Of a stretch of DNA of 63,690 nt, positions 20,880 to 48,411 are shown piece after piece. A program made the translations under genes and the position numbers. Each line of letters starts with the position of its first letter. Positions within the stretch are counted from its first letter, which is position 1. The notes under the pieces are model-generated. The model was not told the DNA's origin. It saw only the letters and a program-made list of their open reading frames with translations, and ran no database searches. The DNA comes from Vermamoeba vermiformis (Eukaryota): positions 496,001-559,690 of the forward strand of contig JBEWZL010000145.1 of NCBI GenBank assembly GCA_045837725.1. Direction: 5' to 3'.

Positions 20880-22831
20880 TTAAGTGAAGAAGGCGCCACT
20901 ATTGTTGTAACTCTCGAAGTCTTCAAAAATGAGGTACGAATTGTTAATAGGTGCCATTTGGGCGTCTTCGCTCGCAGCAGCACAGACTTCTTCATTGAGA
21001 ATGGCTTGCATGCCAGCAGCGGGCTCTTTTACGTTGCAAATCATGGCTTGGACCGAACGGACCAAAGTAACCATAGGAATGCGAGAACGATTGTTCTTAG
21101 CAAGAGCTTCAAAGTTGATCGCGTTCAATTTGGATTCGAGATCGCGGGTGAGCAAGAGCTTCAAGTTCATGTTTTGAATCTGGTTCAAATAAGTCGACAA
21201 CGATTGAGCGTATCGTTGCATATCTTGCTCCAATCCGAGGTGGCTCAACAAAACTGCGCGGAGACCGTAGATCCAGATCTTGTAGCACTTCAACAACTCG
21301 GTGTTCGAAGTCAACACAGCTTGGTTCTTCTCCAAGATGGATTCAGAGTCGTCCAATCGCTGTTTCACCTCACTAAATACGTACGTTAGCATGAACTCAC
21401 GGATAATAGATCGGGTAATAATGCGTACCGTAAAAGAGTGGGACCGAGCTCGCCAGCCATAGCACCAGCAAGAGTAGCAAAGACAAATGCGGTGTTGAAG
21501 AAGAAGATCATCTTATCAGATGGAGCGGGCGACTACAAAAAAATGAAATGTGAGCACGGATCTCGGTTGTCACTCGTACTAACTGAATGCTTACCTTAGT
21601 CATCAAAGCATTAATCTTCTTCAAACAATGTTCCATCTTCAACGGCTCTCCAGGGCTGTTGAGCAGCTCACCAATGTAAGTTCTGAAAATCGAAATACCC
21701 GAATGAGTACCGAACACAGATCGGATATTAAATCATCTGATAGACTTACACAAATGCAGAGTATCTATCGACATAAGATTCCATATTGGATATTATCGTG
21801 CTGGCATCTTGAACCATAAGTTTGTGTGCTTCGTGTCTACCAATTGATTTGTAATAGTAAGAGATGAACAAGAGAGCGTGCGAGAGCTGTTGAGCAAGAT
21901 CCGATCGCTTTTGAGCTTCGCGCTCTAAGAATAAAATGCGGTAGAGATTTTCAGCAGTTGCCAAGAAATGCTCGGCAATATCATTGTAGGACATCCAGCG
22001 CACACCTAATAGAAGTAGAAGGTCAATAGATATTCTTTAGAAGGTACAAAAGAGTGTAACGGTTAGAAGCTTCCGACATCCTTCGAGAAGAATTTCCAAA
22101 AAAGGGAAAAAGAGCCGCCGCCTGAAATTTAATCTTGACTTACCGTGCATGAAGACTACGCAGTGCTCGTACAAGGTGCTCAATTGCTCGAGAGACTCGC
22201 CTTGGAATCGATTGTTGAGTTGTTCGGGTGTAGACTCGAGGAGATAGTTCCACATTTGAAGGGCAAACTCGGTATTTCCGTGAAACTTGTAGTGATCCAT
22301 GAACAAGGCAATCGCGTGTTGGAAATTGGCGATGGCAGCCTTCATTGCATTGACTCGCGATGACAAGAAGATTTCGCTGTCAGCATTGAATCGTGGCTTG
22401 GTAGAAGCGCCGACGGCACGTGCCGAAGGATCGACTGGAATGGAAGTGCCAGTTTGTTGCAATTGCTGTTGCAAATACTCTACTAATCTCTTTTGGACCT
22501 CCAAGTCGATTTTAAGTTGAGAGTTTGAGCTCTTGAGCTCGTTGAGTTCTTGTTCACTAATTTTACTTCTTTTGTGACTGGATTTGGGGCCTCGCTTGGC
22601 GGCACGAGGATGAAATTCGCAATTTATCTTTCTCTTCGTGCATTGGAAGCAAGGAAAAGAGCCATCGCACTTAATTTTTCTCTTTTTGCAAAATTCGCAA
22701 GCATTGGAAACTATTTTCCTTTTACCAGATGCGTGAGCAGAATCACTGCAAGCTCCAGCAGCCTCGTGCATATCGTCGCAATCTTCTTCGTGAGATAGAG
22801 AGTAGGAGTGGTAAGAAGAATCGTCGCTCAT
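20880..22831 (-). CDS. Zn(II)2Cys6 binuclear-cluster transcription factor
   Basis: ACEFCKKRKIKCDGSFPCFQCTKRKINCEF, followed by KRGPK and a coiled coil; spliced helical C-terminal region. Confidence 0.92.
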
Positions 22832-22984
22832 GGTGTGTAGTTGACAAGTAGCCCTTTCTTGCCTCTTGTTGTCGATGCGCAACCAATAACAATGCTTTCG
22901 TGTTCGAGCACACCAAAAACAATTTAAAATGATATTTTGGCACGTGAACGAATGTTCTATCAGGCTTCAGGAAGTTCGTAAAAT

Positions 22985-29466: not shown

Positions 29467-29735
29467 TTTTAGGACTGCGCGTTTGCGTGTCTTACTAAGT
29501 AGCGTAGGGTTCGCCTCACTTGGCTAGTAGCGATTTAGGACTGCGCGTTTTGGGTTTGTTTGTAGCGTTGTGGGACTGCGCGTTGTGGGTTTAGTAGCGA
29601 TTTAGGACTGCGCGTTTTGGGTTTGTTTGTAGCGTTGTGGGACTGCGCGTTGTGGGTTTTGTAGCGATTTAGGACTGCGCGTGTTGGTTAGTAGCGTTGT
29701 GGGACTGCGCGTTTTTTAGGACTGCGCGTTTTTGG
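29467..29735. repeat. Imperfect tandem repeat built on GGACTGCGCG(TT), about 8 copies, with a higher-order unit of about 67 bp
   Basis: Repeating gtagcgatttaggactgcgcgttttgggtttgtttgtagcgttgtgggactgcgcgttgtgggttt. Confidence 0.9.
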
Positions 29736-30218
29736 GCCTTCCTCTTGCCGTTTTGGAACTTTCAATGTCAGTACTTCAACCTCGTTGGACTACACCGCTG
29801 AAGCATCATCTCGACAAGCCGGAGCCAATCGACAGTTCTCATCATCGCCCTTGGTCCCCGTGGTCGGCCGACCACACCATTTTTTTCTTAATGTCACGGC
29901 GTGTTTGATTCAGCAGTGCCACGAGCCGTTGAAACCAAACACGTTGTGCTATTAAGAGATTACGTCGACGGTCAATAAGTATAATTGTATTGGTTTTGAG
30001 GTCAAATAAATTTGTATTTTATGTAAATGGAGTTCGCGCACCATCTTCGCAGTGAAGAATTGTCGTTGTTCTTTGCACTAAATTTGGAAAGAGAACCCAA
30101 AATTTTACCGTTTTTTTCCAAGCTCATTTTAATTTAACTTAGCAATCGCACCAGAAACACAACAAACGCATATATTATTTATAAATGATATATTTCTAGA
30201 CAGTAGAACTCATTAGAA

Positions 30219-33157
30219 ATGGAAATGGAACAAACTTTTTGGTCAAAAGAGGACGATTCAGCACAGATGTTCCACGAGCTGGAGCGCTGGGTAGATGAAG
30301 AAGACTTGTCATCTTCCGCCGAAGCAATTGCCGTATCACCTAAAAACGATATTGACGTGAAAGAGAGCTCTGCGATTGATTCGGATGAGCAAATCGAATC
30401 TTATGTAAATTTACAAGACGTGGATCCCACTGTCCCTTTCTACGAATATACCCACAGTACTCCAGATGCAATTATACTCAATTGTGAAGTGTGCAAGCGA
30501 TTTTGTATTGGTAAGAGAAGGATACTGAATCGAAATTTAATTACTTTTGCAGATTTGATTTTAGTTGATTGAATTAATTCTTGATTGAATGTCTATCGAT
30601 CGCGAAAATAACAAATAACCAATATTATCTCATAGCTCAAGTACACCTACCCGACCTTGCATTGCGTCCAGGCCCAGGAGATAGGAGTTTCACTTTTCGA
30701 TGCGCTAAATGCAACGGAGGAAAACAATCTTTCAAACACAACGAAAAAACATGGTAAGGATAAAAAAATGATCGAGATCGATAGCCTACAAGGCTCGATA
30801 TTTTTAAGTAATTATTTTAAATATTTAAAAAGCGCGCGCAGCGAAAGAATGCAACGGTAACTTGTTGTCTTAGTTTCCCGCGTAAATGGTCATATCGCGG
30901 CTTTTATTTGACAGACTTCCATTTTAGGCTTGACATTGCACTTACGGCTCTATATAATTTGGAAATCAAGCACTCTAGAAGGTTTTTCCACGTAAAGAAA
31001 GAGGTCTGCAAGTTCGTAGATCAACACTGGAACGAGTTATGCCTTGGAAGGACGAGTATGTAAAAACTACGCCCGTCTTCATCACCCTCCCCCCTTCTAC
31101 TACAAAGGTTTTAATTGGTATTTTTTTTATTCAACTAGGAACTGCAACCTGGTGGGCAACTTTGAATGCGCAGATCACCACCCGAACCGATATTTTTGAG
31201 ACCGAGTCTCACGGTTCTGGCAAATGGGCGCTCCGTTACTCTAACCTCACTTGCACCGGCGGCGGCGAAACTAGGACTTCTTCAGTTTTGCTCAAACCCG
31301 AGAAACGCCAAAGATCGAGATCAAAATCCGACCTCGAAGATCGTGTGCAGAACTCCGAAGAGGAGAGCCTGAACGATAGCGAAGAAGACGATATGGTCGA
31401 CGACGAGTTCTCTCGTAAGGAGCGAATCATTGATAAGCGAATGTTCCAAGGCAGGCTTCAGTACTTGCTGCGCACCGAAGATGGCGATGAGATGTGGGAA
31501 GATGCTTCTACAAGCAAGACCGAGCTTATTCGTGAATACGAGGTAAGTCGAAGTTGTGTTTTATTACCAGCTAGTACCTAAAAAGCTCACTCTTGTCATT
31601 TCAGGAAGGGATCAAGCGAGCTGCCCGCAACATTGTGAAGAAAAACAGGCAGCGCCGTCAAAAGTCCTACATGTTCTTGTGGTGCCATCAATGCAAGCAG
31701 AAGCATGACGACGTTGTTTACTGCTCTCGATATTTTAAAGGCAGCTGCAGCAAGAAGTATTGCCTCGGCTGCATCCAGCGACACTACGGTGAAGACATCA
31801 ACGATGACAACAAAGACTCATGGATTTGCCTCTACTGTCGCAATATGTGCAGCTGTGCATTTTGCCGTCGTAGGCGCGGTGACGAGACAGCTCCTACAGA
31901 GTTCGGTGTCAGTGCTGCCCCGCGCAAGTCCCAAAAGCGCAAGCACCACGAAATTGACGAGATAAAGGTAAGAGGGTTTTAAGAATAGATCCTCGAAATA
32001 TCGGTTTCTGACAATTCTAATTTCAGGTAACCGCAAACCAAATCGAAACTATCCTTGCTAGAATTGATCATGGAGACACTGCCGAATATTTGGTGAAGCT
32101 CAAGGATGGCATGGGATCTTGTTGGACAAAAGAGAAAGAGGTGGCCAAAAGTGGTGCCCTACTCGAGCAATTCGATCAAGGATTGAAGATCAGTGTGCCT
32201 GGTTCGGTTATCAACTCTATTCAGTCTACCGGTTCGTCTCCTCAAAAGAGACGTCGCTTGAGCAGTCTCAGGTCCTCCTCTGAAGTTGAACGTCACGACG
32301 TTTCTCTCGAAGAGATAGTCTTACCTCCGAAGGATAAGATCGACATCCCCACGTGGCGTGATGTCTCGGACTACGACGCCTTACTACCAGATCTTGGTTT
32401 GGGTCTCGACGAAGAGAGTGTGGAGGACGATTCTGATGAAGTCTATGCCAACCGCCACGCAAAGTACGAAGAAGAGGAGCAAACGCGATACCGCGAATTC
32501 CTGCGTGCTCAACGGCTAATGAAGGCATCCAGCAAACATCGAAAGCAACACGGTGACACCAAAGTGACATTAAGTGATCTCTTGGCCAGTGGTCTAGTTG
32601 GTGAAGGTGAAGAACTGACATTCCGAGACCAAGTTGATGGCGATACTGCCAAGTTAACAGCGGCTGGCACTATCGAGTGGCGTGGTAGGACCTTCACTAG
32701 CTTGTCGACTTTAGCAAAAACCATGGCCCATGAATGCGGGTACGGCAACTCTGGAACTCTGTTTAACGGTTGGCTGTTCATCTACGCTCGCGGCAAGCCA
32801 ATGGAGCACTATCGTGATCAGTGCCGCAATCAACTGCTTGACGTTACATTTGTGGTAACTGGTGATTTGCCCAACGACGAGCTCGACACGAGCTTGGCTA
32901 GCTTAAAGTCCGAATCGAGTCTACCTCCTGCTGCACTTCAATCAAGCCAAGATATAGAGGATCTCGCTTCACACGACAATGCGGCCTTTTCCGTCACTGC
33001 TACATCGAGTGTTGCCCCTGCTCTTAATGCCTCGTACATCATTCACGATAATAGGTCGATTTTAAGCGACGACTCCTTCTCGAGGCTTGACGCTATAGAT
33101 AACTTCACACTCGAGACTTGGATTGAGGGAATGGACAAGGCTACAACCAACGTCTAA
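30219..33157 (+). CDS. Multidomain chromatin protein: PCL/ASH2L-like PHD-winged helix, chromo-like, zf-4CXXC, PEHE and RAMA domains
   Basis: GDRSFTFRCAKCNGG...TW/LDIALTALYNL..FVDQHWNEL; RIIDKRMFQGRLQYLL..MWE; CHQCKQ..C..KKYCLGC..WICLYCRNMCSCAFCRR; IPTWR..DSDEVYANRHAKYEEEE; TLSDLLASGL..GRTFTSLS..NGW. Confidence 0.8.
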
Positions 33158-33406
33158 CCGCGATCTGAATCCTAATGTACATAGGTTTTTTGTTTATAGA
33201 TATGTAAGATAATGGCGTTTTCCTTGCTTTTGGCTTATCAAAAGTAAGCTTGTACACTATTTTGTTTGATAGGTGATAAATAGACTGATACGAATCATTC
33301 GTCCTAAATTGCGCAAAAAAAATCCCCACAAATTTCACGCCCTACAAAGCCGCCGAGTAACTTAGCATTTATCCGTGCAGTAAAACTAAAGAACATTAAA
33401 GTTGAA

Positions 33407-34516
33407 ATGTCCACTCTCACAGCATCACTGCGCGACTTCGTAACGAAGGATAATTCTTTGGGTTTGTTGAAATGGTAATTAATAATAAGGCTTATAACGT
33501 TCTTTCGTACCTAACTAATTAAGGCCCTTGCTTGCTTTGTCTGGCCTTGGTCTCATTTCTGTCGCATCTGGAATACGGCGCGCATACAATTATTTGAGGG
33601 TGAAGGACTCTGGTCTCGACGCTTATGCTGCACTCAACACAACTCCTGAGCCATTTTATCTGAAGGAACTATTTGACGTGACTTTGGTAATTCAAAAATC
33701 TTAATCTAATTGAAAATTAAATTAATCATGATTATCGATAGAAAAAAACAAGCACACCAATGATGATAACAGGTGTTGTAGAGGGCAGATTTCTCGAATT
33801 TTTGGTCTTTTGGGGAAAGCCTAAAAAGATTCTTGAGATCGGGTGCTTTACAGGTTAGTAGAGCCAACAATTGAAGCTTTAGCAAATTATTCATTATTTT
33901 AAAAACAGGGTATAGCTCATTATGGATGGCGGAACAGCTTCCTGAAGATGGGAAGATAATTACTTTAGATTTGGATCCAAAAGTCACCGCCATCGCAAAA
34001 GAGCATTTCCTGAAGAGCCCCCACGGAGGAAAAATTGAGCACCGCTTAGGCGATGCGCGTCAAGCGTAAGTGATCCTAAACCATACTAAGCACTAATTGT
34101 TATGACAGAGTCACCTCTCTGGACGAGAAATTTGACCTGATCTTTATCGGTACGTAACGTTTCATATCTTTTGAGCTTGTTGCTGACTGGTTTTTCGTTA
34201 AAAGACGCTGATAAGGGAGGCTACGTTCATTACTATCAAATGATTATGTCTCGCGGCTTATTGGCTGAGAACGGCATCATAGTCGTTGATAATACCTTTT
34301 TTATGGGAGGCGCCGCTAATCCTATTCTCAATCGAGTTGGTTCCTTTAAAGAAATTAACGAGTTCAACAAGGTAAGAAAGGCCAGGACTTTATGGCCAAG
34401 GACTTTTGACTAACCTAGCCCATTAGCTTATCCGATCGGATCCTCGAGTTGTTAGTGTTCAATTAAGCATTCGTGATGGAGTGACACTAATTCGACACGC
34501 AAAAAAGACCGAATAA
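33407..34516 (+). CDS. Class I SAM-dependent O-methyltransferase (caffeoyl-CoA OMT / COMTD1-like)
   Basis: PKKILEIGCFT/GYSSLWMA..LPEDGKIITLD; FDLIFI/DADKGGY; IIVVDNT; RDGVTLI. Confidence 0.9.
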
Positions 34517-34769
34517 TTCATTGTTCTTGCTGCATTTCAATAAACAACACGACTCATTGTCATGTAGAGGCACTTTATTGCATTTACTTATTTGGCTTGT
34601 TTGCAAGGTAAATAAATATTCCAAGCCCATCTTAACAACCAGATCTAGTCGGGATTTTTTCGTTAAAATTAATAGAAAAAATATCTGGAATTGATTAATT
34701 GTTTACCCAATCTTTACTTACTATTTCCTCACGTAGACCGAGTTTTAAAAATTGTTTAATGCTGTTTTG

Positions 34770-37022
34770 ATGGATCAGCGTGTCAACAAAAGCCACGTTG
34801 CTGCAACATGTACGCGAAGTGTATCAGTAATAGGAAGCAACAATTGTCCGAAGGCTCTTTTCGACTATTGTCTGCGCGAGGGCAATCTGGCACAAAGCCC
34901 TCCGTTTGTTCCTGCCGACGAGCTTTACCTTGACACTCGAGCAATTCACTATAATCACCACGACGAACACTATTTAATCCACCTGATCAATACACCGGGT
35001 CACCCAGAGTTTATAGGCGAAGTGTCTGCAGCTCTTCGAATTACAGATGGCGCAATTGTTGTGGTTGATTGTACTATTGGAATAGCGCTGCACACGATTA
35101 ATCTAGTACGCCGAGCAGTCGAAGAGCATGTGCGAGTGGTTCTATTGTTCGACAAGGTGGAGTCCTTACTTACCTTGCCACCCGAAGAAGCTGCGTCTGT
35201 GTTGGACTTGTTTTTATGGAAACTCAATTCTAGAGTGCCCTTAGTACACAACGAATTTGGATTGAACAACGACAATGTACTTTTTGGATCATTGGAGCAT
35301 GGTTGGGTGGTATCTCCCGAGCAGTTGTTGCGAGCATTCAGTGCCTCATCCCCAGCACCGAGTAATTCAGCGGAATCGAAGGCACTTTTACGCAGTCTTT
35401 ACGAACTATTTGGACACGCAGGATCGAAAGATTTATCCGTCAATCGACCGTCAAATGTCATCACGGACGGTAATAACGAAGACAATGTTGAACGGTTCCA
35501 TCTTGCACTGCGCAAACTATGCGGTAATGAGGCTTTGTACGAGATGATAGTCAAACGCCTACCGAGTGCTACAGAGGCTCAGAAGTATCGCGCGGCTTAT
35601 TGGTACTCTGGGCATCGCAATGATAAAGTGCTAACAGCAATAACGGAATGCGATTCAAACGGCCCGACTATGATCTATATCAGCAAGATTGTGTGGGGCA
35701 AGATCAACTCATCATCCGAGCTGATTCCACTCGCAGTCGGAAGAATATTCTCCGGCTCAATCCGACCTAATCAGTCTTTGTATAAAATTCGCTCTGGCCA
35801 GATCGACGATCCTTCAGCAATTGTGATAGACAAGCTTTACAAATTTACCGACACAGTTGAAGAACTTGAAGAGTGTTTGAGCGGAAACGTTGTTTTGATT
35901 ACGGGCGTTGCAGAGCTCGTGGACAAAACGGCAACATTTTCTTCACTACCTACAGCAAGCGCATTTAATGCACAACACACCCGATACACAGCGGTTGTCG
36001 AGTACGAAGTGTCCAGCGCGTCACCAACTGACCCTGCAGCAGTGGGACTAAAGTTGCTGGTGAAGTGCGATATTGCAGTGGCAGTTAACTGGCGTGACGG
36101 GTACGGAAGCTGCATTTGTGCTGTTGGCCCGAAGCACGCAGAAGTACTTCTGAAGCGGTACAAAGCATTCGCCAAGGTCGATCCAGTTATAAATGGACCA
36201 TATTACAGATATAGAGAGAGTATAACAGCACCATCGTCAGTTTCGTGTCTGTCAAAGTCACCCAACAAACTTAACCGCGTTTGGGCTCGAGCGCGTCCAA
36301 TGGACTCAACCCTGAAGCAGATACTTTCAAGTCAGAACGTGCCATTCAATGACGCGCAAAAGAATATTGAAGTTTTGAATGACGAGTACTTGTTCATAGA
36401 AGAAAACAACGTGTCAGTGGTCGAGACTAACATGATAGTCATTGACGAGACCCTCATGAAGCGTTTTTCTCATCAAGGCGCTATCGATTGGCTCGACTCG
36501 CTTCGCATTGGTGGTCTGTTCACACTGAAAGGAGGAGTTCTATGCGAAGAACCATTGATTGGCGCTCAGTTCACGCTGGAGGATGCTGTTATAGCCGAAG
36601 ACACCCGAAGAAGGGGAGGCGGCCAGCTAATTCCAATGTTCAGGCGATCATTCCTTGCAGCGCAGCTAACAGCCAAACCAGTGCTGTTAGAGGCCATTCT
36701 CTTGACGGAGATCCACGTGCCTTTTATGAATGTGAATAGCGTATATAATGAGCTTCTGAGGAAAAGAGCTGTGGTCTTAATAGAAAGTGAACACCTCGAG
36801 CATAGCAATATGACTGTAATACGATGCTACGTCCCGGTCGTGGAAAGTCTTGAACTTCACGAGCCAGCAGTTTCAACGAGTTTTTTCAGCCACTGGGAAC
36901 AAGTACCCGGTGATCCGTTGGAAGAAGGAAGCTTCGCTAATTCAGTCACGCGAAGCATTAGAAAAATTAAGGCCTTGCGGGAGTCAATTCCAGAACTTGA
37001 TACTTATCTTGACAAGCTGTAA
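34770..37022 (+). CDS. Divergent intronless elongation factor 2 (eEF2)-like paralog with degenerate G-domain
   Basis: LINTPGHPEFIGEVSAALRITDGAIVVVD; LPSATEAQKYRA; GRIFSG; YRESI..SKSPNKLNR; LCEEP; RGGGQLIP; HWEQVPGDP; ends YLDKL as in eEF2. Confidence 0.9.
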   Translation: MDQRVNKSHVAATCTRSVSVIGSNNCPKALFDYCLREGNLAQSPPFVPADELYLDTRAIHYNHHDEHYLIHLINTPGHPEFIGEVSAALRITDGAIVVVDCTIGIALHTINLVRRAVEEHVRVVLLFDKVESLLTLPPEEAASVLDLFLWKLNSRVPLVHNEFGLNNDNVLFGSLEHGWVVSPEQLLRAFSASSPAPSNSAESKALLRSLYELFGHAGSKDLSVNRPSNVITDGNNEDNVERFHLALRKLCGNEALYEMIVKRLPSATEAQKYRAAYWYSGHRNDKVLTAITECDSNGPTMIYISKIVWGKINSSSELIPLAVGRIFSGSIRPNQSLYKIRSGQIDDPSAIVIDKLYKFTDTVEELEECLSGNVVLITGVAELVDKTATFSSLPTASAFNAQHTRYTAVVEYEVSSASPTDPAAVGLKLLVKCDIAVAVNWRDGYGSCICAVGPKHAEVLLKRYKAFAKVDPVINGPYYRYRESITAPSSVSCLSKSPNKLNRVWARARPMDSTLKQILSSQNVPFNDAQKNIEVLNDEYLFIEENNVSVVETNMIVIDETLMKRFSHQGAIDWLDSLRIGGLFTLKGGVLCEEPLIGAQFTLEDAVIAEDTRRRGGGQLIPMFRRSFLAAQLTAKPVLLEAILLTEIHVPFMNVNSVYNELLRKRAVVLIESEHLEHSNMTVIRCYVPVVESLELHEPAVSTSFFSHWEQVPGDPLEEGSFANSVTRSIRKIKALRESIPELDTYLDKL

Positions 37023-37061: not shown

Positions 37062-40000
37062 ATGGAAGATAAAGCACCATATTCGTTGCCTCTTCAATAC
37101 CGTATTGCTCTTATCGGGCCAAACGGTAAGCTCGTGATAATCAACCCTATTTGTTAACGCGCTTAGGTGTGGGCAAAAGTAGCATCTGCTCTCAATTCGT
37201 GCACAACACCTTCGATGAAAATTATGAAACTACAGATACGTTAGATGAATACACTATTTGGGTAAATATAACTATTAAAGATTTTTTGGAATTTTGAAAC
37301 GAAATCTGGACGACGGTGGCCACTCTAATTAATTCACCAATTCAAAGGCCAATAAATTGTATAATTATGATCAAATTTCTAACGTTAATTTTTTAGTTCC
37401 GCGTTAAAAATCAGAATTACCTGTTAGGTAAGTCGCGTGTCTGTCAAATAAATAATTATTTACTAATTTATAAATGTAGAGATCGAAGACCTAGCTGGAT
37501 CGAACGAGTTTCGTGTAAGTTCTGTGTTAGGACAACTGTTGAGATTTTTAATTTCAAATAATATCGTTTTAGCATCGCCCGGCTGCCGACGCCTTTATTC
37601 TCGTTTATTCTATCGATAATTCGAACAGTTTTGATATAATCAGAAGACAAACTGCCAAGATAACCAAAGTGGCGAGGAATGCGGTAATCATTATTTTTGT
37701 GACTCGCTTGTCACTTTCCGCTAACGTCGTTTACCTTAGAAATTGGTCATTTTAGTTGGAAATAAGGCTGATACTAATAATAGACAAGTGAAATTTGAAG
37801 TAGCATCACAATTTGCTCGAAATAATGGGCTTTCGTTGATAGAAGTCTCTGCGACTAGTACGTTGTTCGAACGCACCCTTTTCGCAATTATTAACGTAAT
37901 TGTTCTTAGGTCGCGAATCAGTACGCAATCTTTTCGAATTCATTTTGCATAAGCTTCAAAGTAAGAATTTTTTGTCCGCTAGGATTGGGATCTAACCGGG
38001 TATTTAGTGCACCTCATTAAAACGACAATAATTTCCCCTATTCTGGACGGTCAATTGGAAGGCAAGAGCGAAAAGAGCCAATTAATTGCCAAACAATTAA
38101 AGCAAGATCAGTTGCGAAGAGCAATGAGCGATCTGTCGTGGTCTTTGGATCGCTCAGATTTTAGTGACATTGCCTTTATATTCACGAAAGAAAACAAAAA
38201 GTAATTCTTCACACGTAGTAATATCTATTACTGACACTATTGCAGGTTATTCGCCCATCGCTGCATTTTGTATGCACGATCTGACTCGTTCAGAGAACTC
38301 TTAGCAACAGAATGGAGTCAGCCGGAAATAATCATCGACGATGTTAAGTGTGAAATATTCCAAGCCATTATGAAGTTTGTGTACAGGTAAATGTATTTTC
38401 TAATCGAGGTTTACAATTACTGACCAGATCCTGATCTGCAGCGCTCAAGCGGACGCTGGTGATTTCAACGTGTCAGTATCTACGGCAAAAGAGATTATAG
38501 AAGTCGCCGAGAAGTTTAAGATCTACGATTTGAGTCATTTAGCCCGCCGCTATGTCATTACCAAAGCTGCAGTTGAGCGTACGTCGCCGGATCTATTTAA
38601 GTTTTTCCTAACACCAACGTGTTTAATTGTTTATATTAGGCATTACGTCTCTTCTCGAGAAACTATTTGAAGGACTTCGCAAGATTTCAGACTTTTTGGA
38701 TAAGGCCACAAATGACTACGTGTCGGTCTTAGCTTTCCTTCAAGAAAATATTCTGGAGGCACTCGACACGGCAGTTACGATCTGTTTCTCGTTTTTTAAG
38801 CAGTACAAGTTCTTCCCTGCTTTCCTCAAGACGGAGTTACTAGAGCACATATTCCAACATTTCCGAGGCTGGGCCACGTAAGTCTGGAAAGAATATTACA
38901 GCACTCATAGCTAATATCACGGTATTAGCACATTATCATCTGTTTTGACCAAGTTGTGGCCTTATTTTGAGAAGTTAACGAAGCCCGAGAGACTGGAACT
39001 CTGTGATCTCATTCGCGAGAGACTTTTGAAGATAACGCACGCGTTCCCTGATCTGCGCTCAAGGTAAATCCGTTGTTAATGACGCAAGCAAAGCTCACGT
39101 GCTGTGCAGATTGAAGGACAAGATGGAGCAAGTGTTCGAGTCCCGCCGTTTGCCAATGAACAAAAAGATTAAATCAGAACTGACTGAGTTCGTTGAGCTG
39201 TTGGGCGTTGTGCACGGCAAGCTAACAGACTACGACGGGTCACAAATGAAGCACAAAGTCAAGCACTTTTTGCATTCGTGGGACAAGACTGGCCGTAGCA
39301 TCACAAAGCTGCTCAACAAATATGACACAACAGAGCCATCGGAGATCGAGGGCGTGAAGAAGAGAATATTAGAAATGCTAGCACTAATGACGTCGAACGA
39401 AGTTCTCGGAATCGCACGCAACGTTGTGATGGAGTACCACGATGAGATTAAGAACGTTATGGACGTGTTTTTGAAACAAACACAGCTCCGTGCATCCCTG
39501 CAAGAGGTTCTCAATTTCTTCGTTGGAAAGTCTGGTGATGATACCAACGTGGAGAATATTGAAACATTGCTCAACGAGATGACATTTGACAACTTCAAGC
39601 CTCAGCGCATGAACGGTAATTTGATGGACGTGTTCGATCAAGACAAGTTCAGTGACTTGCAACTTCAATGGCAAGAGACCGCGGATGCTCAAATGATCAA
39701 CGCTCACAAAGTAATTCTTTCGAACTTTTCAGCAATCTTCAGAAGGTACGTCGAAAGCAGTTAGCCTACTTTCGAAGCAGAGTTTTAATTTTTTCACGCA
39801 GCATGTTTGTTGGCGGTTTCAAAGAAAGCAAAGAAAAAGTACTGCCAATATCTGACGTAGATTATCTTGCCATGCGTAGTTTAGTGCAATTCCTCTACAA
39901 CGGCGGTGATATCACTCCGCTGTTGTATCAAAAACACAACGCGAATGACACTACAAACCTCATACTTCAAGTGCTCATTGCAGCCAATCAGTATCAAATC

Positions 40001-42145
40001 GAACCGTTGAAAATGCAGTGCGAAGAGTACATCAAGTTGCAACTGTCGAAGATGGAAGTCGACGACATTTTGTCCCTGTATTCGATCGCTGACACGTACC
40101 AAGCCGAGATATTGAAGAAGGCGTGTCTCTCTTACACCGACAGACTTTTGTTCACAACGACGCCCTCGGCAACTTTCTTGAGCTTGCCTGCTGACGTGCA
40201 AAAGGCAGTTCTGGCCAGCAAGGCCCAATTTGAACGCGAGTTAGTGCATGCCAAAGTGTTCGTGGTCGGTGAGCGCGGTGTTGGCAAGACATCACTCATC
40301 AACAATTTCTTGGCCAATTTTCCCGCGGAAGAGTCATCACGTACGTTTGCACCATTATTTGTAACATATTTACTAACGCGCATTGTAGCGCCTAATCGCC
40401 GGTTTGTGGAGGCTCACGAGGGGTCTGCAGCCTACCTCGAAGTAGAGGAGATTTCATGCGAAACAGTTACTTCACAGTGGCTAGAAAACAACGTTTACGA
40501 CGCAAAAGGCGCGGTGGGTTTCCTGTTTGTGTTTGATTTGACCAGCAGAAAGTCATTGAAGAACGTGGTTGAACTCAAAAAGCGCGTGTTTGCACATTAC
40601 GAGCGACATCATATTATCGACACACCTGGTGGCAGTGTCGAAACACACAGTGTGCCGCTGTTTGGAGACGCCATTGGACTGCTCGTCGGCACCAAATGCG
40701 ACGTGGAAGATAAGGACGAGAAGTGGTTCGACTTTTCTCCTCCCTATTCGGATCCGCTTGGTTTAGGACCACCAACAAAGCTTGTTATTGAGCATGATGA
40801 CAATGAGAAGGAGTCAGAGTTGCGTCGATTTGGAATGCCCGAGCTGGTACACATTCAACATCAGTTGGATATTGGCTTCATCGAAGTTTCCACGGTCGTA
40901 GGCACCAATGTTCCATCGTGTTTCAAACGCGTAAGTTACTCGAACAAGTCATATTAAGCGCGCTTAACACTTGCATGTAGATGGCGCTCGCGTTTAAACA
41001 CATGACCAAGTCGTTCAATCCGACGCAAGATACCTTCGACTCGTTCTTGAACACGAAAGACAGTCAGACTATTTTGATATTGGGCAGTGAATCGATAGGC
41101 AAGTCGACTATTATAAAACAAGCGATGGTCGTTGCAGCTGGCAGCAAGAAGCCGAATTACAACAGATTTGAAGTGGTGCAGTCCATGAAGCGACAAGTAT
41201 ACGAGTACATTGAAGAGCTCGTGCACACTATTCGAACGAAGACTGAGTTACCCTCCCCGCCTGTGCACGACGTACGTACTCAATAGTATTCTATTCGAAG
41301 TTAGTCTAACGGTTGCTAGTTAATTGATTCCAACCCGACGTATTGGGGCAATGAAATTGTGGTTCTTTGGAACGACGCAACGGTGCAACACGTGCACGAG
41401 AATAGAAATCTGTATGGCATTTACCACTGCCCCTCAGCGTAAGAACTTCATTCGAAAATAGTCTACAACATTGTATTAACCTGCTTTTCAGTGCCTTGCA
41501 AAAGATCGATTTGATTCACAAATGGGACTATGTACCTACAGTGGACGACTTTATCTCCGCACACGTGTATAATTCTAAGAAGTCGTTTGAATCTCAAGTG
41601 CTCTATTTGAACAAGATATTCCGATTCGTCGATCTTCCTGGAAATTCGCTCGACCCAGTTCTCTTTGGAGACGCACGAAACTACTTCAATCAACTCGGCA
41701 TTGTAGTTTTTATGGTGTCACTTGCAGATTATGTGGAGCGCTGCGATGGTTATCCTTCGAAATTACACCGATCGCTTGCAATGTTAATCGAGCTGGCCAT
41801 GCAGGTACCACAAACAACGAGAAAGCTGTTCATCTATTTCAACAAGGTAGGCTAAAGAGACGATCCTCACATTTTAACATCGATATTTTGAAACAGCGTG
41901 ATGAGTTCGAACGATTGCTGCCAATAGTGAAGTTGAGCACCCTCCCTCAGTTCGATGGAATGGACGAGCGCTCACCTCAGGAACAACTTGAGTTCATTGT
42001 GGACCTCTTTTATACCGCCGCCAAGCAGCACGCAAAGTGTGACGTTTCTTACTTGTACGGATCTCTCCTCAGAACGGTCGATGCCACTCGTCTGTTAATT
42101 ACACTGACAACGTTCTTCGATGAGCCCGAGTCAGGCCATGCTTAG
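37062..42145 (+). CDS. Ras-like - BTB - helical - BTB - Ras-like - Galpha-like fusion protein
   Basis: IALIGPNG/VGKSS, LVGNKAD, EVSA; FSDIAF..AHRCIL; FSDLQL..AHKVIL..FRSMF..GFKES; VVGERGVGKTSL, LVGTKCD, EVST; LILGSESIGKSTIIKQ, YVPTVDD, FMVSLADY, FNKRD. The junctions checked splice in frame. Confidence 0.78.
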
Positions 42146-42173: not shown

Positions 42174-44715
42174 TTATTCTAAAACTAACAAGATACACGA
42201 AGCAATAGTTATTGCGACAAACCAAAATGCAGCAGGTGAAGCAGTGCTGGTAACAGAGCCAGGGTTTGTAGAGCCAGCGGGTGTTTCAGGATTAGAAATG
42301 GCAAGTTGATTGCCGTCCCAAGTTCCTATTGTTTCGCCGATATTGAACGACCACGTGTTTCCATTGTGATTAAGCTGCGGTTCATTTCCCGTGCAGTCAG
42401 GATCCAACAACACAACAAATGTGACCGAAGTGAGATTCGTGTTGAGTTTGAACTGTCCGTGTGCTTGATTAGGCAAGTTCACTGGAACAGTGAACTGATC
42501 TGTTTGAGTGAAGGTGTAATCCGATGACGTGTACAGCATCTTGATGCACAACGATGCATTGCCGTCACTTGACTTGACAGTCGATGGCGAGACAACAGTG
42601 AAGTTGATGAATGCGTGCAGATTCCATTCGAAGCTTCGAGAAGAGTTGGCGTCGAATTGGTCGAAGATCACAAACTGATTGCTAGCCCGGAAGTAAACAA
42701 TGGAGCGAATGGCGCGTGTTAACTGAAGAGCTGGGTTTGTTACGCCATTGTTGTACGCTACCAAAGCATCTCCGGTGACGAAGTCAAACTCGTTTGAGTG
42801 GCCGAATTGAGTGATGTTGCCTGTTGCCGACAGCTGACCGATCATTTGCCCTACACCTCCGTCCATTGTCACACCACCACTCTTAGCTCGCGTCGTCCTC
42901 GTCCAGCCATTGTGATGTGCAGATCCATAGTAATCGTAGTAGCCACTGCTGATGAGCAACGCTTTGCCTTTGTGTGCAAATGTGAAGCACAACTGATCCG
43001 CATAGTTGTGATTGTATGAGCCGAATCTGCTTGAGCGGAAGAACAGCGACGTGCGTTGATTGTCGGAAAGAGAGCTGTGGAATGACGCCCAGCCAATCGG
43101 TGCCAAGTGAATAGCATTGGGATAGTTGCCTGGCAGCGGTTGAGGCGAGTTGAACTCGCGACTCCAAATAACATCGTTGTAGCGCGAGTCGACAACACCT
43201 TTGTAAGTGAGCGCGTTGCAGTACCAGTTATAAAGATCTTGATATTCCATGGTCGGAGATTCATCAAGAACTGGACTAACAACGTTGAGGCAGACCATAG
43301 GTTGATATGGTCGCATATCTGCCTGCCCACTGTCACCAAAGCCAAGACCGCCTGATGCCGCGCCTGGCGGTGAGAAGTAGATGAATTGCAAGGGCCACTC
43401 GCGCACCCACTGCTTCTGATACAGACTCACGCCTGTACTCCACTTCAAGAAGTTGAAGCGAGACGGTTCACTTGTAACGTCAAAGTAGTTGTAGCCCATG
43501 CCATTGCCGAAGCCTCCTTCGTGCTCACCCCAGGTGCTGTACATGTTTAAGAACATAGGAATGCTTGCTGCCCATGCGTCCGCTTCAGGAATCAGTCCAA
43601 GCACTGCCGCACTAGCACTGGCAATGAAGCCAAGAGTGTTGGCACCATGAGAGTCGTACGGTGCCGTCATTAATTGAGTGAGGAAACCTCCGTTCTGGTA
43701 CATTTGTTCGGTTCTGTTCTGGATGTTTGCCAAGATTCTATTGCGATCGGTTACGTTGAATTCGTTGTAGATCAAATCAAGGACTTGAGCCAGCGACAAT
43801 AAGATGGCTCTGTTTGCTTGATCTTGTGAGGCATAGCTTGTTGCTCCTGCTGGGTCCGCGTCCAAAAGTGCATATGTTCTTCGCTTGAGCTCATTGACGT
43901 AGATTGTGTTTGAAGAGTTGTACCAAAGAGCGTAGATGCAGTTCGAGATGTAAAGGACTTGCGGGCTCGTGAAGTCATTCATAACGCTCGATAGGTATGC
44001 GGCCCATTCAGGAGAGCCAAAAGGAAAGTCACTGGCAGTCTTGTTCGGTGCAACAGGAAGTGTAGCTCCGAGCTTTCTGTCCAGGTACGGAATTACCTGG
44101 GTGTTCACTACCTTGACGAATGATTGACCAGAGGATGAAGCCAAGAAAGCTGTCTTCGCATCACCCTTCATCAACAATCGTGGACGAGCAGAGTTCTTCG
44201 TCGTCGTGATAACGTCAGTTGGCACGACAAATGTTGTGGCATCAGATGTGACGAAGAACGAGCGCAGATCACTGTCAGTCGACGTGCCCTTGACAGAGTC
44301 CACCAAAGTCACTCTCCAAAAGTAGTGCGTGTCCACGGGTAAGGCAAGCGGCACGTTGTAAAAGCAGTTCGTTGTGGTGAAACTCCAGTCAGGTTGACGA
44401 TCGGCTGCTGAGTTGGCCCAGATCGACAATTTGAACGATTTGCCACTGCCAAGGAATCCTTGAGCGGTCCACCAAAATGAGGGCGGATTAGATTTAACGA
44501 TGGCACCATCTGGCGGAACGATCCGAACGTAAACCAAGTCATGATTCGTTAACAAATCTAACAATTGACATTAGCCCGGGTAAATAATTATCAATGAATA
44601 GAGGTGCAATCTTTTGAAAAGATTCGTTAATTATTTGTATAAATTAAATACCTCCGTGAACATAATTCGATGCGATGGCCAGAATAATCGCAATAAAACA
44701 CAACGGCAGTCTCAT
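42174..44715 (-). CDS. Secreted, GPI-type DUF4962 + heparinase II/III-like polysaccharide lyase (PL15 oligo-alginate lyase-like)
   Basis: Signal exon MRLPLCFIAIILAIASNYVHG, one intron, then NPPSFWW, PRLL, PYDSHG, FGDS, IGWASFHS, FRSSRFGSYNHNYADQ..F, SGYYDYYGSAHH..W, EWNLHA; S/T linker and hydrophobic C-terminal tail. Confidence 0.85.
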
Positions 44716-46308: not shown

Positions 46309-48411
46309 ATGATGAATCGAAGATTTTTCGTTGCTTTCTTACTTGCCATTATTGCCGCATCTGCTATCGCCAGAGATATCGGTCGTGTGAAAGTCATTCA
46401 CGCTTACCCTGCAGGACAAGTTACGGTCGATATCTACATTCTTCAGAACGGTTTTGTCGCCAAGTCATTAATGAGCGTGCCTTACAAGGTAAGTAAATTT
46501 GTCCGATCTGATCTTCAAAAAGGAGCATTTTCTAATATTTTCTAGGCTGCCAGCGATTGGTTCTACTTACCTTACGGAGACTACACTGTGGAAATTAGAG
46601 CTGCTGGCCAGACTGACGCAATCTTAACCACCCCCGTTACAGTGGAGAGTTATTCTACTGTTATTTTCGCTCAGGACAACAATGGCAATGGCCAATTGAC
46701 TCTTTCGGCCTTTAGCGACAACATTGACTCCATTGCCGATGGAAAATCTCACGTCACCATTGCTCATCGCGCCGTTGATGTTTCTAACGTCGACGTTGGT
46801 GCTGGTGACTCGACGAACAACCTTGCTGTAGACTTGGCTTATGGCAGTCAAGCTGGCCCTGTTGAAGTCGATGCTGGTACCGTCAGTGCTGGCGTTCGAT
46901 TAACTGGTGATACTGGTGCCCCCGTTATCACTCTGTCTGCTACTTTGGAAGCTCGCAAACACTATCTCGTCGTTGCCGTTGGTGATTCTAGTGGTAATCC
47001 CGCACTGACTCTTCTCGCCTTCGAATTGGCCGACTACTCCATTAGCGCTCGTTTAGCTTTTGTTCACGGTGTTCCTGCAGCGGATCTCCCCGTCAGTGTT
47101 AACGCTAATGATCAACTTGCTCTCTTCCGAAACGTCAAGTAAGTAATCGATTATTTCCGAGCAATATTGTGTCAATACTTATAATTAAATTGCAGCTACA
47201 AGAACATCACCGACTACAAGAACATTCCCGTCGGTACCCACACCATCAACGTCGTGGCTGGAGGCAATGTTGCTCTCTCCGTTACTGCTTTCTTCAATGG
47301 ATTTACTGAATCGACGTTGTACGCTACATTTAATGGTGAAGGCCCAGCTGGCATTCTCCTTCTTGACAACAATGAAGCTCCTGCTAGCGGCAAAACTCAC
47401 TTGAGAGTCTTGCACGGTGCTGGCGCTGCCCCCTCAGTGGACGTTCTCTCTGGCACCACTGCCGTCATTTCCAACATCACCTACGGCTTCGCTTCTGCAT
47501 ATTTGGCTCTTGATGCTGGTTCTTATTCACTTTCCGTTAATGCTGCCGGCTCGTCCACATCCGTATTCCAAGTAAGCTTGACCCTCGCTGCCGGACCCAT
47601 CATCACCGTTCTCGCGACCGGAGATCCCGCTGCAAGTGGTGCCACAGCCTTCACTCTTGTTGTCGTCACCGATGCTACCTATGGCTCTGGCGGCAACTTG
47701 CGTGCTGTCCATGCTGTCGCTGGTGGTCCTAACGTCAACATCAAGGCCAACGGCAATCAAATCTTGTCCAACGTACCTTATCAGGCCGTATCAGGCTATT
47801 TGCCTATTGATGCTGGCTTGTACGCAGTTAGCGTTCACGCTGCTTCGGATGATGCCGAAATTTTCCGCAACCCTATCCGAGTTGATGCTGCTGGATATTT
47901 TACTGCTATCGCTGGTGGCGTGCAGGATCTTGCTCTCTTCCAATTACGAGACGACAACACTCGCCCCGCTGCTACCACGGCTCATCTCCGCGTTGTACAC
48001 GCCTCTGCTGGTTCGCCTGAAGTCAACATCGAATTCGGTGGAAGTATTGTTGGTTCTCTCGTCTACACTGAAGCCTTTGGTTACGTTCCTGTTCCCGCTG
48101 GTTCTTACGTCGCTCGCGTTCTCGCCAAGTCTAACAACGCTCAAGTTTTCAATGGTTCGTTGTCCTTGGAAGCCGACACCGTTGTCTCCGTGTTTGCCGT
48201 TGGTATTGTTGGTGACAGCACTAATGGCTTCACTGTTGTTCCTGCCATCGACTTCGATTACCGAACTCCTGCTGCCGAGCCGACAGCTGCTGCTCCTTCG
48301 TCGACCCCTACCGGAACTCCTACCAGAACTCCCACTCCCACTCGCACTTCGTCAGCAAGTTACGTTGGTGTCTCTAGTATTGCCATGTTGGCCTTGGCTG
48401 CTTTGTTTTAA
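46309..48411 (+). CDS. Secreted, GPI-type surface protein made of tandem DUF4397 (AlgF-like) repeats
   Basis: Signal peptide; repeats VKVIHAYPAGQVTVDI, LRVLHGAGAAPSVDV, LRAVHAVAGGPNVNI, LRVVHASAGSPEVNI, each followed by Y...S.Y..(L/V).AG.Y; PT-rich linker and hydrophobic tail; two introns. Confidence 0.85.

Follow-up and report, generated by a model that had tools for sequence, protein, structure and literature searches.

Here we describe a single expressed gene of Vermamoeba vermiformis at positions 30219 to 33157, plus strand, of a 63,690-nucleotide stretch of DNA (the window; assembly GCA_045837725.1, contig JBEWZL010000145.1, positions 496,001 to 559,690). Its 811-residue product joins a PHD-like zinc knuckle and winged helix (PHD-WH) of the Polycomb-like/ASH2L type, two chromo-fold domains that flank a CDCA7-type zinc finger (zf-4CXXC_R1), the first half of a PEHE domain and a RAMA domain. 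By analogy with the known relatives of these domains, we put the chances at about even that the protein acts in the nucleus as a DNA- or nucleosome-anchored chromatin scaffold for a MOF-type MYST acetyltransferase, that is, as a functional analogue of MSL1/KANSL1. The features of the gene are as follows, with structural confidence given as the predicted local distance difference test (pLDDT).

30219..33157, plus strand: whole coding region, 6 exons, 811 residues, TAA stop at 33155-33157
30219-30510, 30636-30753, 30928-31055, 31139-31542, 31605-31967 and 32027-33157, plus strand: the exons
30219..30470, plus strand: acidic N-terminal region, residues ~1-84, predicted disordered (pLDDT 31-44 at residues 1-89 of the orthologue model)
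30471..31245, plus strand: PHD-like C4 zinc knuckle and winged helix, Polycomb-like/ASH2L type, residues ~85-216, exons 1-4
31408..31655, plus strand: chromo-fold domain 1, residues ~270-331, three strands in exon 4 and a C-terminal helix reaching into exon 5
31680..31901, plus strand: zf-4CXXC_R1 zinc finger, residues ~340-413, 11 cysteines
32027..32206, plus strand: chromo-fold domain 2, residues ~436-495, at the start of exon 6, followed by a conserved FDxGLKISVP linker
32339..32557, plus strand: first half only of a PEHE domain, residues ~540-612, IPTWRD ... DDSDEVYANRHAKYEEEE and a long helix
32522..32833, plus strand: RAMA domain, residues ~601-704 by Pfam and 613-705 by fold
32861..33154, plus strand: C-terminal tail, residues ~714-811, predicted disordered, with a short predicted helix at the end

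The gene model was built by reading positions 29500-34000 with stop-to-stop open reading frames (ORFs). All five introns have GT..AG borders and are 125, 174, 83, 62 and 59 nucleotides (nt) long; they are short and spliceosomal, in a window of about 43% G+C. The joined coding sequence of 2436 nt translates into 811 residues with its sole stop at the end, and the ATG at 30219 is preceded, 12 nt upstream, by an in-frame stop. Start and stop are exactly those given in a preliminary description of this DNA. A single contig of 2478 nt from a public run (X1) was placed on 30295-33275, starting within exon 1 and differing in 22 letters, and all five predicted introns were precisely absent from it. 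Since an intron-free contig must come from spliced RNA, all six exons and all domains lie on one transcript, and the locus is one expressed gene. The downstream gene was found on another contig at another depth (38.7 versus 10.2). The raw oligo-dT RNA-seq runs X22-X24 placed no reads here and are counted as no test.

An 807-residue database protein (P0001) is 90.4% identical to the window protein over its full length and shares the exon junctions. Its longest contig, at 2725 nt, is shorter than the 2939-nt genomic span of the window gene, which would fit a cDNA origin provided that the introns of this relative are similar. For the spliced window protein, Pfam was run exon by exon on the window and over the full length on P0001. 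AlphaFold2 model 1 was computed for P0001 (149 aligned sequences, mean pLDDT 63) and was confident at residues 100-215, 275-330, 340-410, part of 571-605 and 615-710. Model 2 was computed for the window's own exon 6 (376 residues, 27 aligned sequences, mean pLDDT 68.7). Chromo domain 2 is of low confidence in model 1, with its 807 residues and mixed alignment, and is resolved only in model 2. Folds were compared by running Foldseek and VIA-align on these predicted models.

The acetyltransferase link rests on the PEHE segment. Window exon 6 scored 40.9 bits against Pfam PEHE (PF15275; cut-off 34) over profile positions 1-70 of 127, and phmmer aligned the segment to MSL1 fragments of entries 2y0m and 4dnc, which we take to be MOF-MSL1 complexes. 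In this alignment IPTWRD stands opposite VPSWRD and DDSDEVYANRHAKYEEEE opposite LDDSVFSKRHAKLELDE, and both matches cover the IPxWR and DExYxxRHxxxE landmarks. Model 2 places a helix at residues 136-170 of exon 6 with a pLDDT of 80-94. The core motif EDxSDExYxxRH is conserved in at least 10 of 152 collected proteins and is kept, in the alignment, across relatives that are only about 30% identical overall. The half present in the window protein is the PEHE part that was co-crystallised with MOF. As reported, the PEHE domain of KANSL1 and MSL1 binds the histone acetyltransferase (HAT) domain of MOF (PMC4018492, PMC6607013), and MSL3 binding has been placed in PEHE's second half (PMC2893135). This second half is absent here and RAMA follows directly, so that the complete PEHE domain expected of an MSL1/KANSL1 orthologue was not found. 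Thus, the PEHE call of the preliminary description holds for the first half, which passes the Pfam cut-off and aligns to MSL1, but not for the remainder of the domain.

Compared with MSL1 and KANSL1, the window protein has the N-terminal PEHE half with its PxWR and DExYxxRHxxxE landmarks, is likewise largely disordered outside its domains and, as we propose, would share the role of a HAT-docking scaffold. It differs from them in lacking the MSL3-binding second half, in matching no other MSL1/KANSL1 region, and in possessing a PHD-WH, a zf-4CXXC_R1, two chromo folds and a RAMA domain of its own.

In the mechanism that we propose, the modules are arranged as an acidic disordered N-terminus, the PHD-like C4 knuckle with the winged helix, chromo domain 1, zf-4CXXC_R1, chromo domain 2, the half PEHE, RAMA and a disordered tail. 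The winged helix, the zinc finger and RAMA, solved relatives of which bind double-stranded DNA, would anchor the protein multivalently on DNA or nucleosomes; according to the entry titles, the matched structures of PHF1, MTF2, MPND, CcrM and CDCA7 are complexes with DNA. The PEHE segment, which would correspond to the part docking the MOF HAT domain in MSL1/KANSL1, may then recruit, and perhaps stimulate, a putative MOF-type MYST acetyltransferase. This would make the protein a functional analogue of MSL1/KANSL1, specific to its lineage and equipped with DNA-binding modules of its own, for which a coupling to H4 acetylation may reasonably be supposed. Gene structure, the single transcript, domain homologies, folds and substituted residues come from the data; DNA binding, recruitment of a HAT and every specificity are inferred.

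Several observations weigh against this proposal. On P0001 the PEHE profile scored 34.5 bits, barely over the cut-off of 34, and the MSL1 matches are weak on their own (2y0m_B, E 0.18; 4dnc_D, E 1.1). The PEHE region appears in the models mostly as one long helix, with parts below a pLDDT of 60. In a Pfam scan of 35 relatives, the PEHE cut-off was passed by P0054 alone, and none of the 35 showed both PEHE and RAMA. DNA binding by three modules is a property that would be carried over from homologues, and the acetyltransferase partner is a putative one. Finally, the sequence alignment of the winged helix to MTF2 and PHF1 ends at residue 178-179, before the recognition helix and the wing, so that the CpG specificity of the Polycomb-like proteins is not transferable.

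An alternative is a chromatin protein with a general DNA-binding or architectural role and no tie to an acetyltransferase, in which the PEHE-like stretch is just an acidic linker and helix with a likeness to PEHE. Such a protein would account for the partial match (1-70 of 127), the score of 34.5 on P0001, the single modelled helix, and the many relatives that have zf-4CXXC and RAMA without the PEHE motif. We nevertheless consider it unlikely, since window exon 6 scored above the PEHE cut-off (40.9 versus 34), the MSL1 matches align over the two landmarks, IPxWR and DExYxxRHxxxE, and the core motif is conserved among relatives with about 30% identity.

The anchoring modules of the proposed scaffold had been described before as readers, and their residues bear on this. 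For RAMA, the domain itself is clear: window exon 6 scored 48.1 bits against Pfam RAMA (PF18755; cut-off 35.2), and the exon 6 model, with a pLDDT of 89-97, superimposed on MPND (7ydw_A, Z 12.3, root-mean-square deviation (rmsd) 2.1, 88 of 92 residues) and on CcrM (6pbd_A, Z 12.0). The P0001 model gave Z 12.6 and 12.2, respectively. MPND was not among the phmmer matches of exon 6 in the PDB (E<=10), and the RAMA assignment, which agrees with the preliminary description, is based on the Pfam profile together with the fold. While the window protein shares RAMA with MPND, MYSM1 and bacterial CcrM by Pfam and fold (Z 12.0-12.6), it differs from MPND and MYSM1 in that no MPN/JAB deubiquitinase domain was found (P0001, Pfam E<=5) and in that its RAMA comes after a PEHE segment.

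RAMA was named by Iyer et al., who predicted that it discriminates N6-methyladenine (6mA, or m6A), reported it from stramenopiles, chlorophytes, rhodophytes and animals, and described its fusion with PHD, Chromo and further chromatin domains (PMC4738411); PEHE and CXXC each occur zero times in the main text of that paper. The reading of 6mA by RAMA, as had been proposed for the window protein, is contested in the literature. In pull-downs, the RAMA domain of MPND was selective for 6mA DNA and that of MYSM1 was not (PMC6591016), whereas in electrophoretic mobility shift and microscale thermophoresis assays 6mA was without effect on MPND binding, and RAMA touches only the DNA backbone, as in CcrM (PMC9963953). 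What can safely be expected from these homologues is the binding of double-stranded DNA. One relative, P0077 (463 residues), which was matched through RAMA alone, carries two RAMA stretches ahead of an Mrr-type restriction endonuclease domain; it was from this prokaryotic context that RAMA got its name.

The zinc finger, too, passes profile and fold tests. Pfam zf-4CXXC_R1 (PF10497; cut-off 22.7) scored 51.9 bits on window exon 5 and 44.9 on P0001. The CDCA7 chain 8tle_A aligned with E 5.5e-11 and with all eleven signature cysteines matched, and the fold, modelled at a pLDDT of 95-97, matched CDCA7 with Z 7.2 and an rmsd of 2.7 over 69 residues at 35% identity, in line with the zf-4CXXC call made previously. 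As reported, the CDCA7 zinc finger senses hemimethylated CpG: R274 contacts the methyl group of 5-methylcytosine (5mC) and the adjacent guanine, Q275 tells hemimethylated from fully methylated CpG, R304 and S330 contact the DNA backbone, and R304H is predicted to disrupt DNA binding (PMC11343034). At the positions of R274, Q275, G294, R304 and S330 the window protein has K, Q, K, H and A, so that only Q275 is retained; the CDCA7 numbering was counted along the aligned chain and fits the S330 and C339 that the paper names.

Class I zf-4CXXC_R1 proteins, which are taken as CDCA7 orthologues, conserve R274, G294 and R304 according to a survey of the family (PMC10538959). In the window protein the eleven cysteines are present, but the three residues linked to ICF syndrome (immunodeficiency with centromeric instability and facial anomalies), R274, G294 and R304, are replaced by K, K and H, which places the finger outside class I. 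In the family alignment, G and R never occur at the positions of G294 and R304, and that of R274 is occupied by R, K, N or L. With these residues missing, the earlier idea that this finger senses hemimethylated CpG could not be upheld, and 5mC sensing is unlikely.

Two chromo-fold domains were found where the preliminary description had one. The first is modelled with strands at 276-301 and a helix at 307-331 (pLDDT 68-87). All ten of its PDB matches at E<=10 are chromodomains, with E 0.056-1.1 and CBX5 as the best (0.056), and Foldseek returned HP1/CBX with probabilities of 0.97-0.99 and E 0.08-0.4. A family profile matched CBX5 with E 6e-17, a score driven by the canonical relatives. The second domain matched chromodomain 2 (CD2) of cpSRP43 (5e4w_C, E 5.8e-4) and is modelled as three strands and a helix at a pLDDT of 90-95. 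For residues 1-56 of exon 6, chromo or chromoshadow domains make up 47 of the 50 VIA-align matches listed (Z 7.1-8.3, rmsd mostly 1.5-3.1), and these matches span nearly the whole target domain. Both domains thus show the three-stranded sheet packed on a C-terminal helix that defines the chromo fold, in likeness to HP1/CBX and cpSRP43 CD2. Pfam Chromo (PF00385) gave no match on the window exons (E<=1) or on P0001 (E<=5); among the 35 scanned relatives it was detected at E<=0.01 in seven, six of them above the cut-off, and aligns to the position of chromo domain 1.

The aromatic methyl-lysine cage of HP1/CBX consists of Y21, W42 and F45 in CBX1 numbering. At these positions chromo domain 1 of the window protein has S, T and a three-residue gap, and chromo domain 2 has Leu at the position of the cage Trp, which sets both apart from HP1/CBX; the relatives with a detectable Chromo retain KW.G[YF]. 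With the cage residues lost, methyl-lysine reading is unlikely in the window protein, and its chromo-fold domains are more likely structural or protein-protein modules. The chromo fold is therefore established by PDB, Foldseek and VIA-align matches, twice rather than once and missed by Pfam, while the histone-methyl reading that had been attached to it finds no aromatic cage in either domain.

These substitutions bear directly on the idea of a multi-reader protein, in which hemimethylated 5mC would be read by zf-4CXXC, 6mA by RAMA, unmethylated CpG by the PHD-WH and methylated histones by chromo, all coupled through PEHE to H4 acetylation. All five domain types are indeed present, and the idea could draw on the hemimethylated-CpG sensing of the CDCA7 finger as reported (PMC11343034), with Q275 retained, on the 6mA selectivity of the MPND RAMA in pull-downs (PMC6591016), and on the prediction of RAMA as an m6A discriminator fused to PHD and Chromo (PMC4738411). 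However, the zinc finger has K, K, H and A at R274, G294, R304 and S330, among which R274 contacts 5mC, and a disruption of DNA binding is predicted for R304H itself (PMC11343034). Moreover, both chromo domains have lost the cage residues, and 6mA had no effect on MPND binding, where the contacts are with the backbone only (PMC9963953). The CpG observed/expected ratio of 1.07 in the window, a weak indicator, likewise gives no sign of CpG depletion. Judged by the sequence, the loss of reader residues weakens the multi-reader model, and we regard it as distinctly unlikely, although for RAMA it may still hold.

The zinc finger could also suggest an adaptor of the CDCA7 kind, bringing in a HELLS/DDM1-type remodeller to maintain DNA methylation. 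The finger has the 11-cysteine zf-4CXXC_R1 fold, 34-35% identity to CDCA7 at an rmsd of 1.9-2.7, and the conserved Q275. The family survey also notes proteins with zf-4CXXC_R1 and CHROMO in Acanthamoeba and Taphrina (PMC10538959), so that this pairing has precedent; PEHE has zero occurrences in PMC10538959. Against such an adaptor, none of the three class I ICF residues is kept (K, K and H, with A at S330), the similarity is confined to the zinc finger and its preceding helix, and the architecture is otherwise unlike that of CDCA7, with extra domains foreign to it. Nor was any evidence found for a HELLS link of the window protein, and we consider this role very improbable.

The PHD-WH module is likewise supported by profile and fold. 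The ASH2L-like_WH profile (PF21198; cut-off 25) reached the gathering score on P0001 with 26.7 bits and gave 20.6 bits on window exon 3 alone, below the cut-off because an intron splits the domain. The motif GDRSFTFRCAKC..W/LDIALTALYNL matched MTF2 (E 2.2e-9), PHF1 (5e-9), Pcl (4.5e-5) and ASH2L (6e-3) in the PDB. By VIA-align, the fold, modelled at a pLDDT of 76-97, matched MTF2 with Z 13.4 (120 residues, rmsd 2.6), PHF1 with Z 12.4, ASH2L with Z 11.4 and Pcl with Z 10.4. Pfam on P0001, the PDB alignments and the fold all agree with the Polycomb-like/ASH2L-type PHD-WH that had been recognised in the quoted motif. In the alignment only four Cys positions of the knuckle are common to the relatives. 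ASH2L has a PHD-WH of the single-zinc type, which the four conserved Cys of the window protein resemble.

Polycomb-like proteins carry a Tudor domain and two PHD fingers ahead of the winged helix, and ASH2L has a SPRY domain after its PHD-WH. Pfam on P0001 (E<=5) returned RAMA, zf-4CXXC_R1, PEHE and ASH2L-like_WH and nothing else, hence no Tudor, PHD or SPRY domain, so that the window protein is assigned neither to the Polycomb-like nor to the ASH2L orthologues. A PRC2 (Polycomb-like) or COMPASS (ASH2L-like) accessory subunit targeted by its PHD-WH would explain why residues 85-216 are closest in sequence and fold to MTF2, PHF1, Pcl and ASH2L (E 2e-9 to 6e-3, Z 10.4-13.4). Yet the window protein lacks the Tudor, the first PHD and the SPRY domain of these proteins, as judged from P0001, and its remaining architecture is unrelated; we therefore give this role still less credence than that of a CDCA7-like adaptor.

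The module order is not peculiar to the window. Two further sequences, P0002 and P0003, are incomplete models of one locus and are about 40-47% identical to the window protein, and in them, too, the modules run from PHD-WH through chromo, zinc finger, chromo and PEHE to RAMA. Together with the single contig in which the six exons are joined and the introns removed, this shared order at 90% and about 40-47% identity makes an artefact of two adjacent genes or a mis-joined model, in favour of which nothing was found, virtually impossible. The two-gene alternative was rejected on the spliced contig of run X1, and the single gene of the preliminary description stands.

The wider family was collected with HMMER against 1.84 billion representatives, which gave 814 matches (E<=1e-3); the top 150 of these were listed. 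P0001 was then compared domain by domain with the 152 collected proteins using phmmer; since many of these are fragments, the counts are lower bounds. The PHD-WH was found in at least 92 proteins, zf-4CXXC in at least 76, RAMA in at least 18 and PEHE in at least 7. PHD-WH and zf-4CXXC occur together in at least 21 of the 152, and zf-4CXXC with RAMA but without PHD-WH in at least 6. Among these proteins, PEHE and RAMA co-occur in P0001, P0002, P0003 and the fragment P0004 alone. A backbone of PHD-WH, chromo, zf-4CXXC, in some cases a second chromo, and PEHE is thus recurrent, as is zf-4CXXC with RAMA, and the window protein is the union of the PEHE-bearing backbone and the zf-4CXXC and RAMA architecture. 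Environmental eukaryote data commonly contain relatives that have either PHD-WH, chromo, zf-4CXXC and PEHE or zf-4CXXC and RAMA. A metagenome scan returned four short loci (1.05-1.35 kb), all four with zf-4CXXC_R1 and one with a weak RAMA in another frame, which tell nothing more about the complete architecture. No usable match for P0001 was obtained from the ESM Atlas.

The two ends of the protein are less widely shared. Among the 152 proteins, the acidic N-terminal segment matched only P0001 itself, and the C-terminal tail matched only P0001 and the fragment P0004. The tail has a pLDDT of 35-47 over residues 281-360 of exon 6, and its helix at 350-370 is of low confidence (pLDDT 47-51). In the alignment, P0011 and P0014 have an additional N-terminal segment ahead of the PHD-WH, which in P0011 gives a weak PTM/DIR17-like Tudor match (E 0.0013, below the cut-off). 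Some family members may therefore still hold a dedicated histone-reader module.

The architecture is new and built from known modules. No description of the protein was found in the searched literature, which contained no paper combining PEHE with CDCA7 and, among the papers listed, none combining PEHE with 'RAMA domain', in agreement with the preliminary description, whose author knew of no such combination. In the same literature, PEHE-domain scaffolds of MOF complexes appeared to be confined to animals, as judged from titles and the opening lines of abstracts. A MOF-docking segment beside RAMA, a CDCA7-type finger and a Polycomb-like winged helix in a conserved and expressed protein is a candidate for the tethering of an acetyltransferase to DNA outside animals, and the same protein offers a test case for the modified-DNA preference of RAMA and of a divergent zf-4CXXC_R1. 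It also carries a caution, as the domain names suggested four "readers" and the reading residues are missing in three modules. A more far-reaching possibility is that of a family of microbial-eukaryote PEHE scaffolds, counterparts of MSL1/KANSL1 with DNA-binding modules of their own, whose RAMA members recognise adenine-methylated DNA at active genes and direct a MOF-type HAT there. We regard this as quite improbable, but if true, RAMA-bearing PEHE scaffolds would link 6mA directly to H4K16 acetylation, at a time when eukaryotic 6mA reading is disputed (PMC9963953 versus PMC6591016).

About 500 bp upstream of the ATG, a tandem repeat at 29525-29713 consists of 2.9 copies of a 67-bp unit with 93% matches or, alternatively, of 5.8 copies of a 35-bp unit. 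Further genes and ORFs of the window are the following.

1576-2214, minus strand: fragment of a VPS13 middle region
22037-22966, minus strand: ORF with a Zn(2)-Cys(6) binuclear cluster domain (E 1.6e-8)
33381-34413, plus strand: O-methyltransferase, the downstream neighbour (Pfam Methyltransf_3, E 2.2e-14 and 1.6e-5 on two exon pieces)
34749-37022, plus strand: EF-2/EFL1-like translational GTPase ORF of 757 residues
39036-40957, plus strand: adjacent overlapping ORFs with BTB/POZ and Ras/Roc GTPase matches
42174-44570, minus strand: uninterrupted ORF of 798 residues with DUF4962 and a heparinase II/III C-terminal domain
47185-48411, plus strand: ORF of 408 residues with four DUF4397 repeats (E 5.4e-55)

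The first intron of the O-methyltransferase gene (33474-33522, 49 nt) was confirmed by a separate spliced contig. The overlapping ORFs at 39036-40957 suggest a RhoBTB-like gene interrupted by an intron or by a frame change. The ORF at 42174-44570 has a polysaccharide lyase architecture of bacterial type in a eukaryotic window and may have been acquired horizontally.

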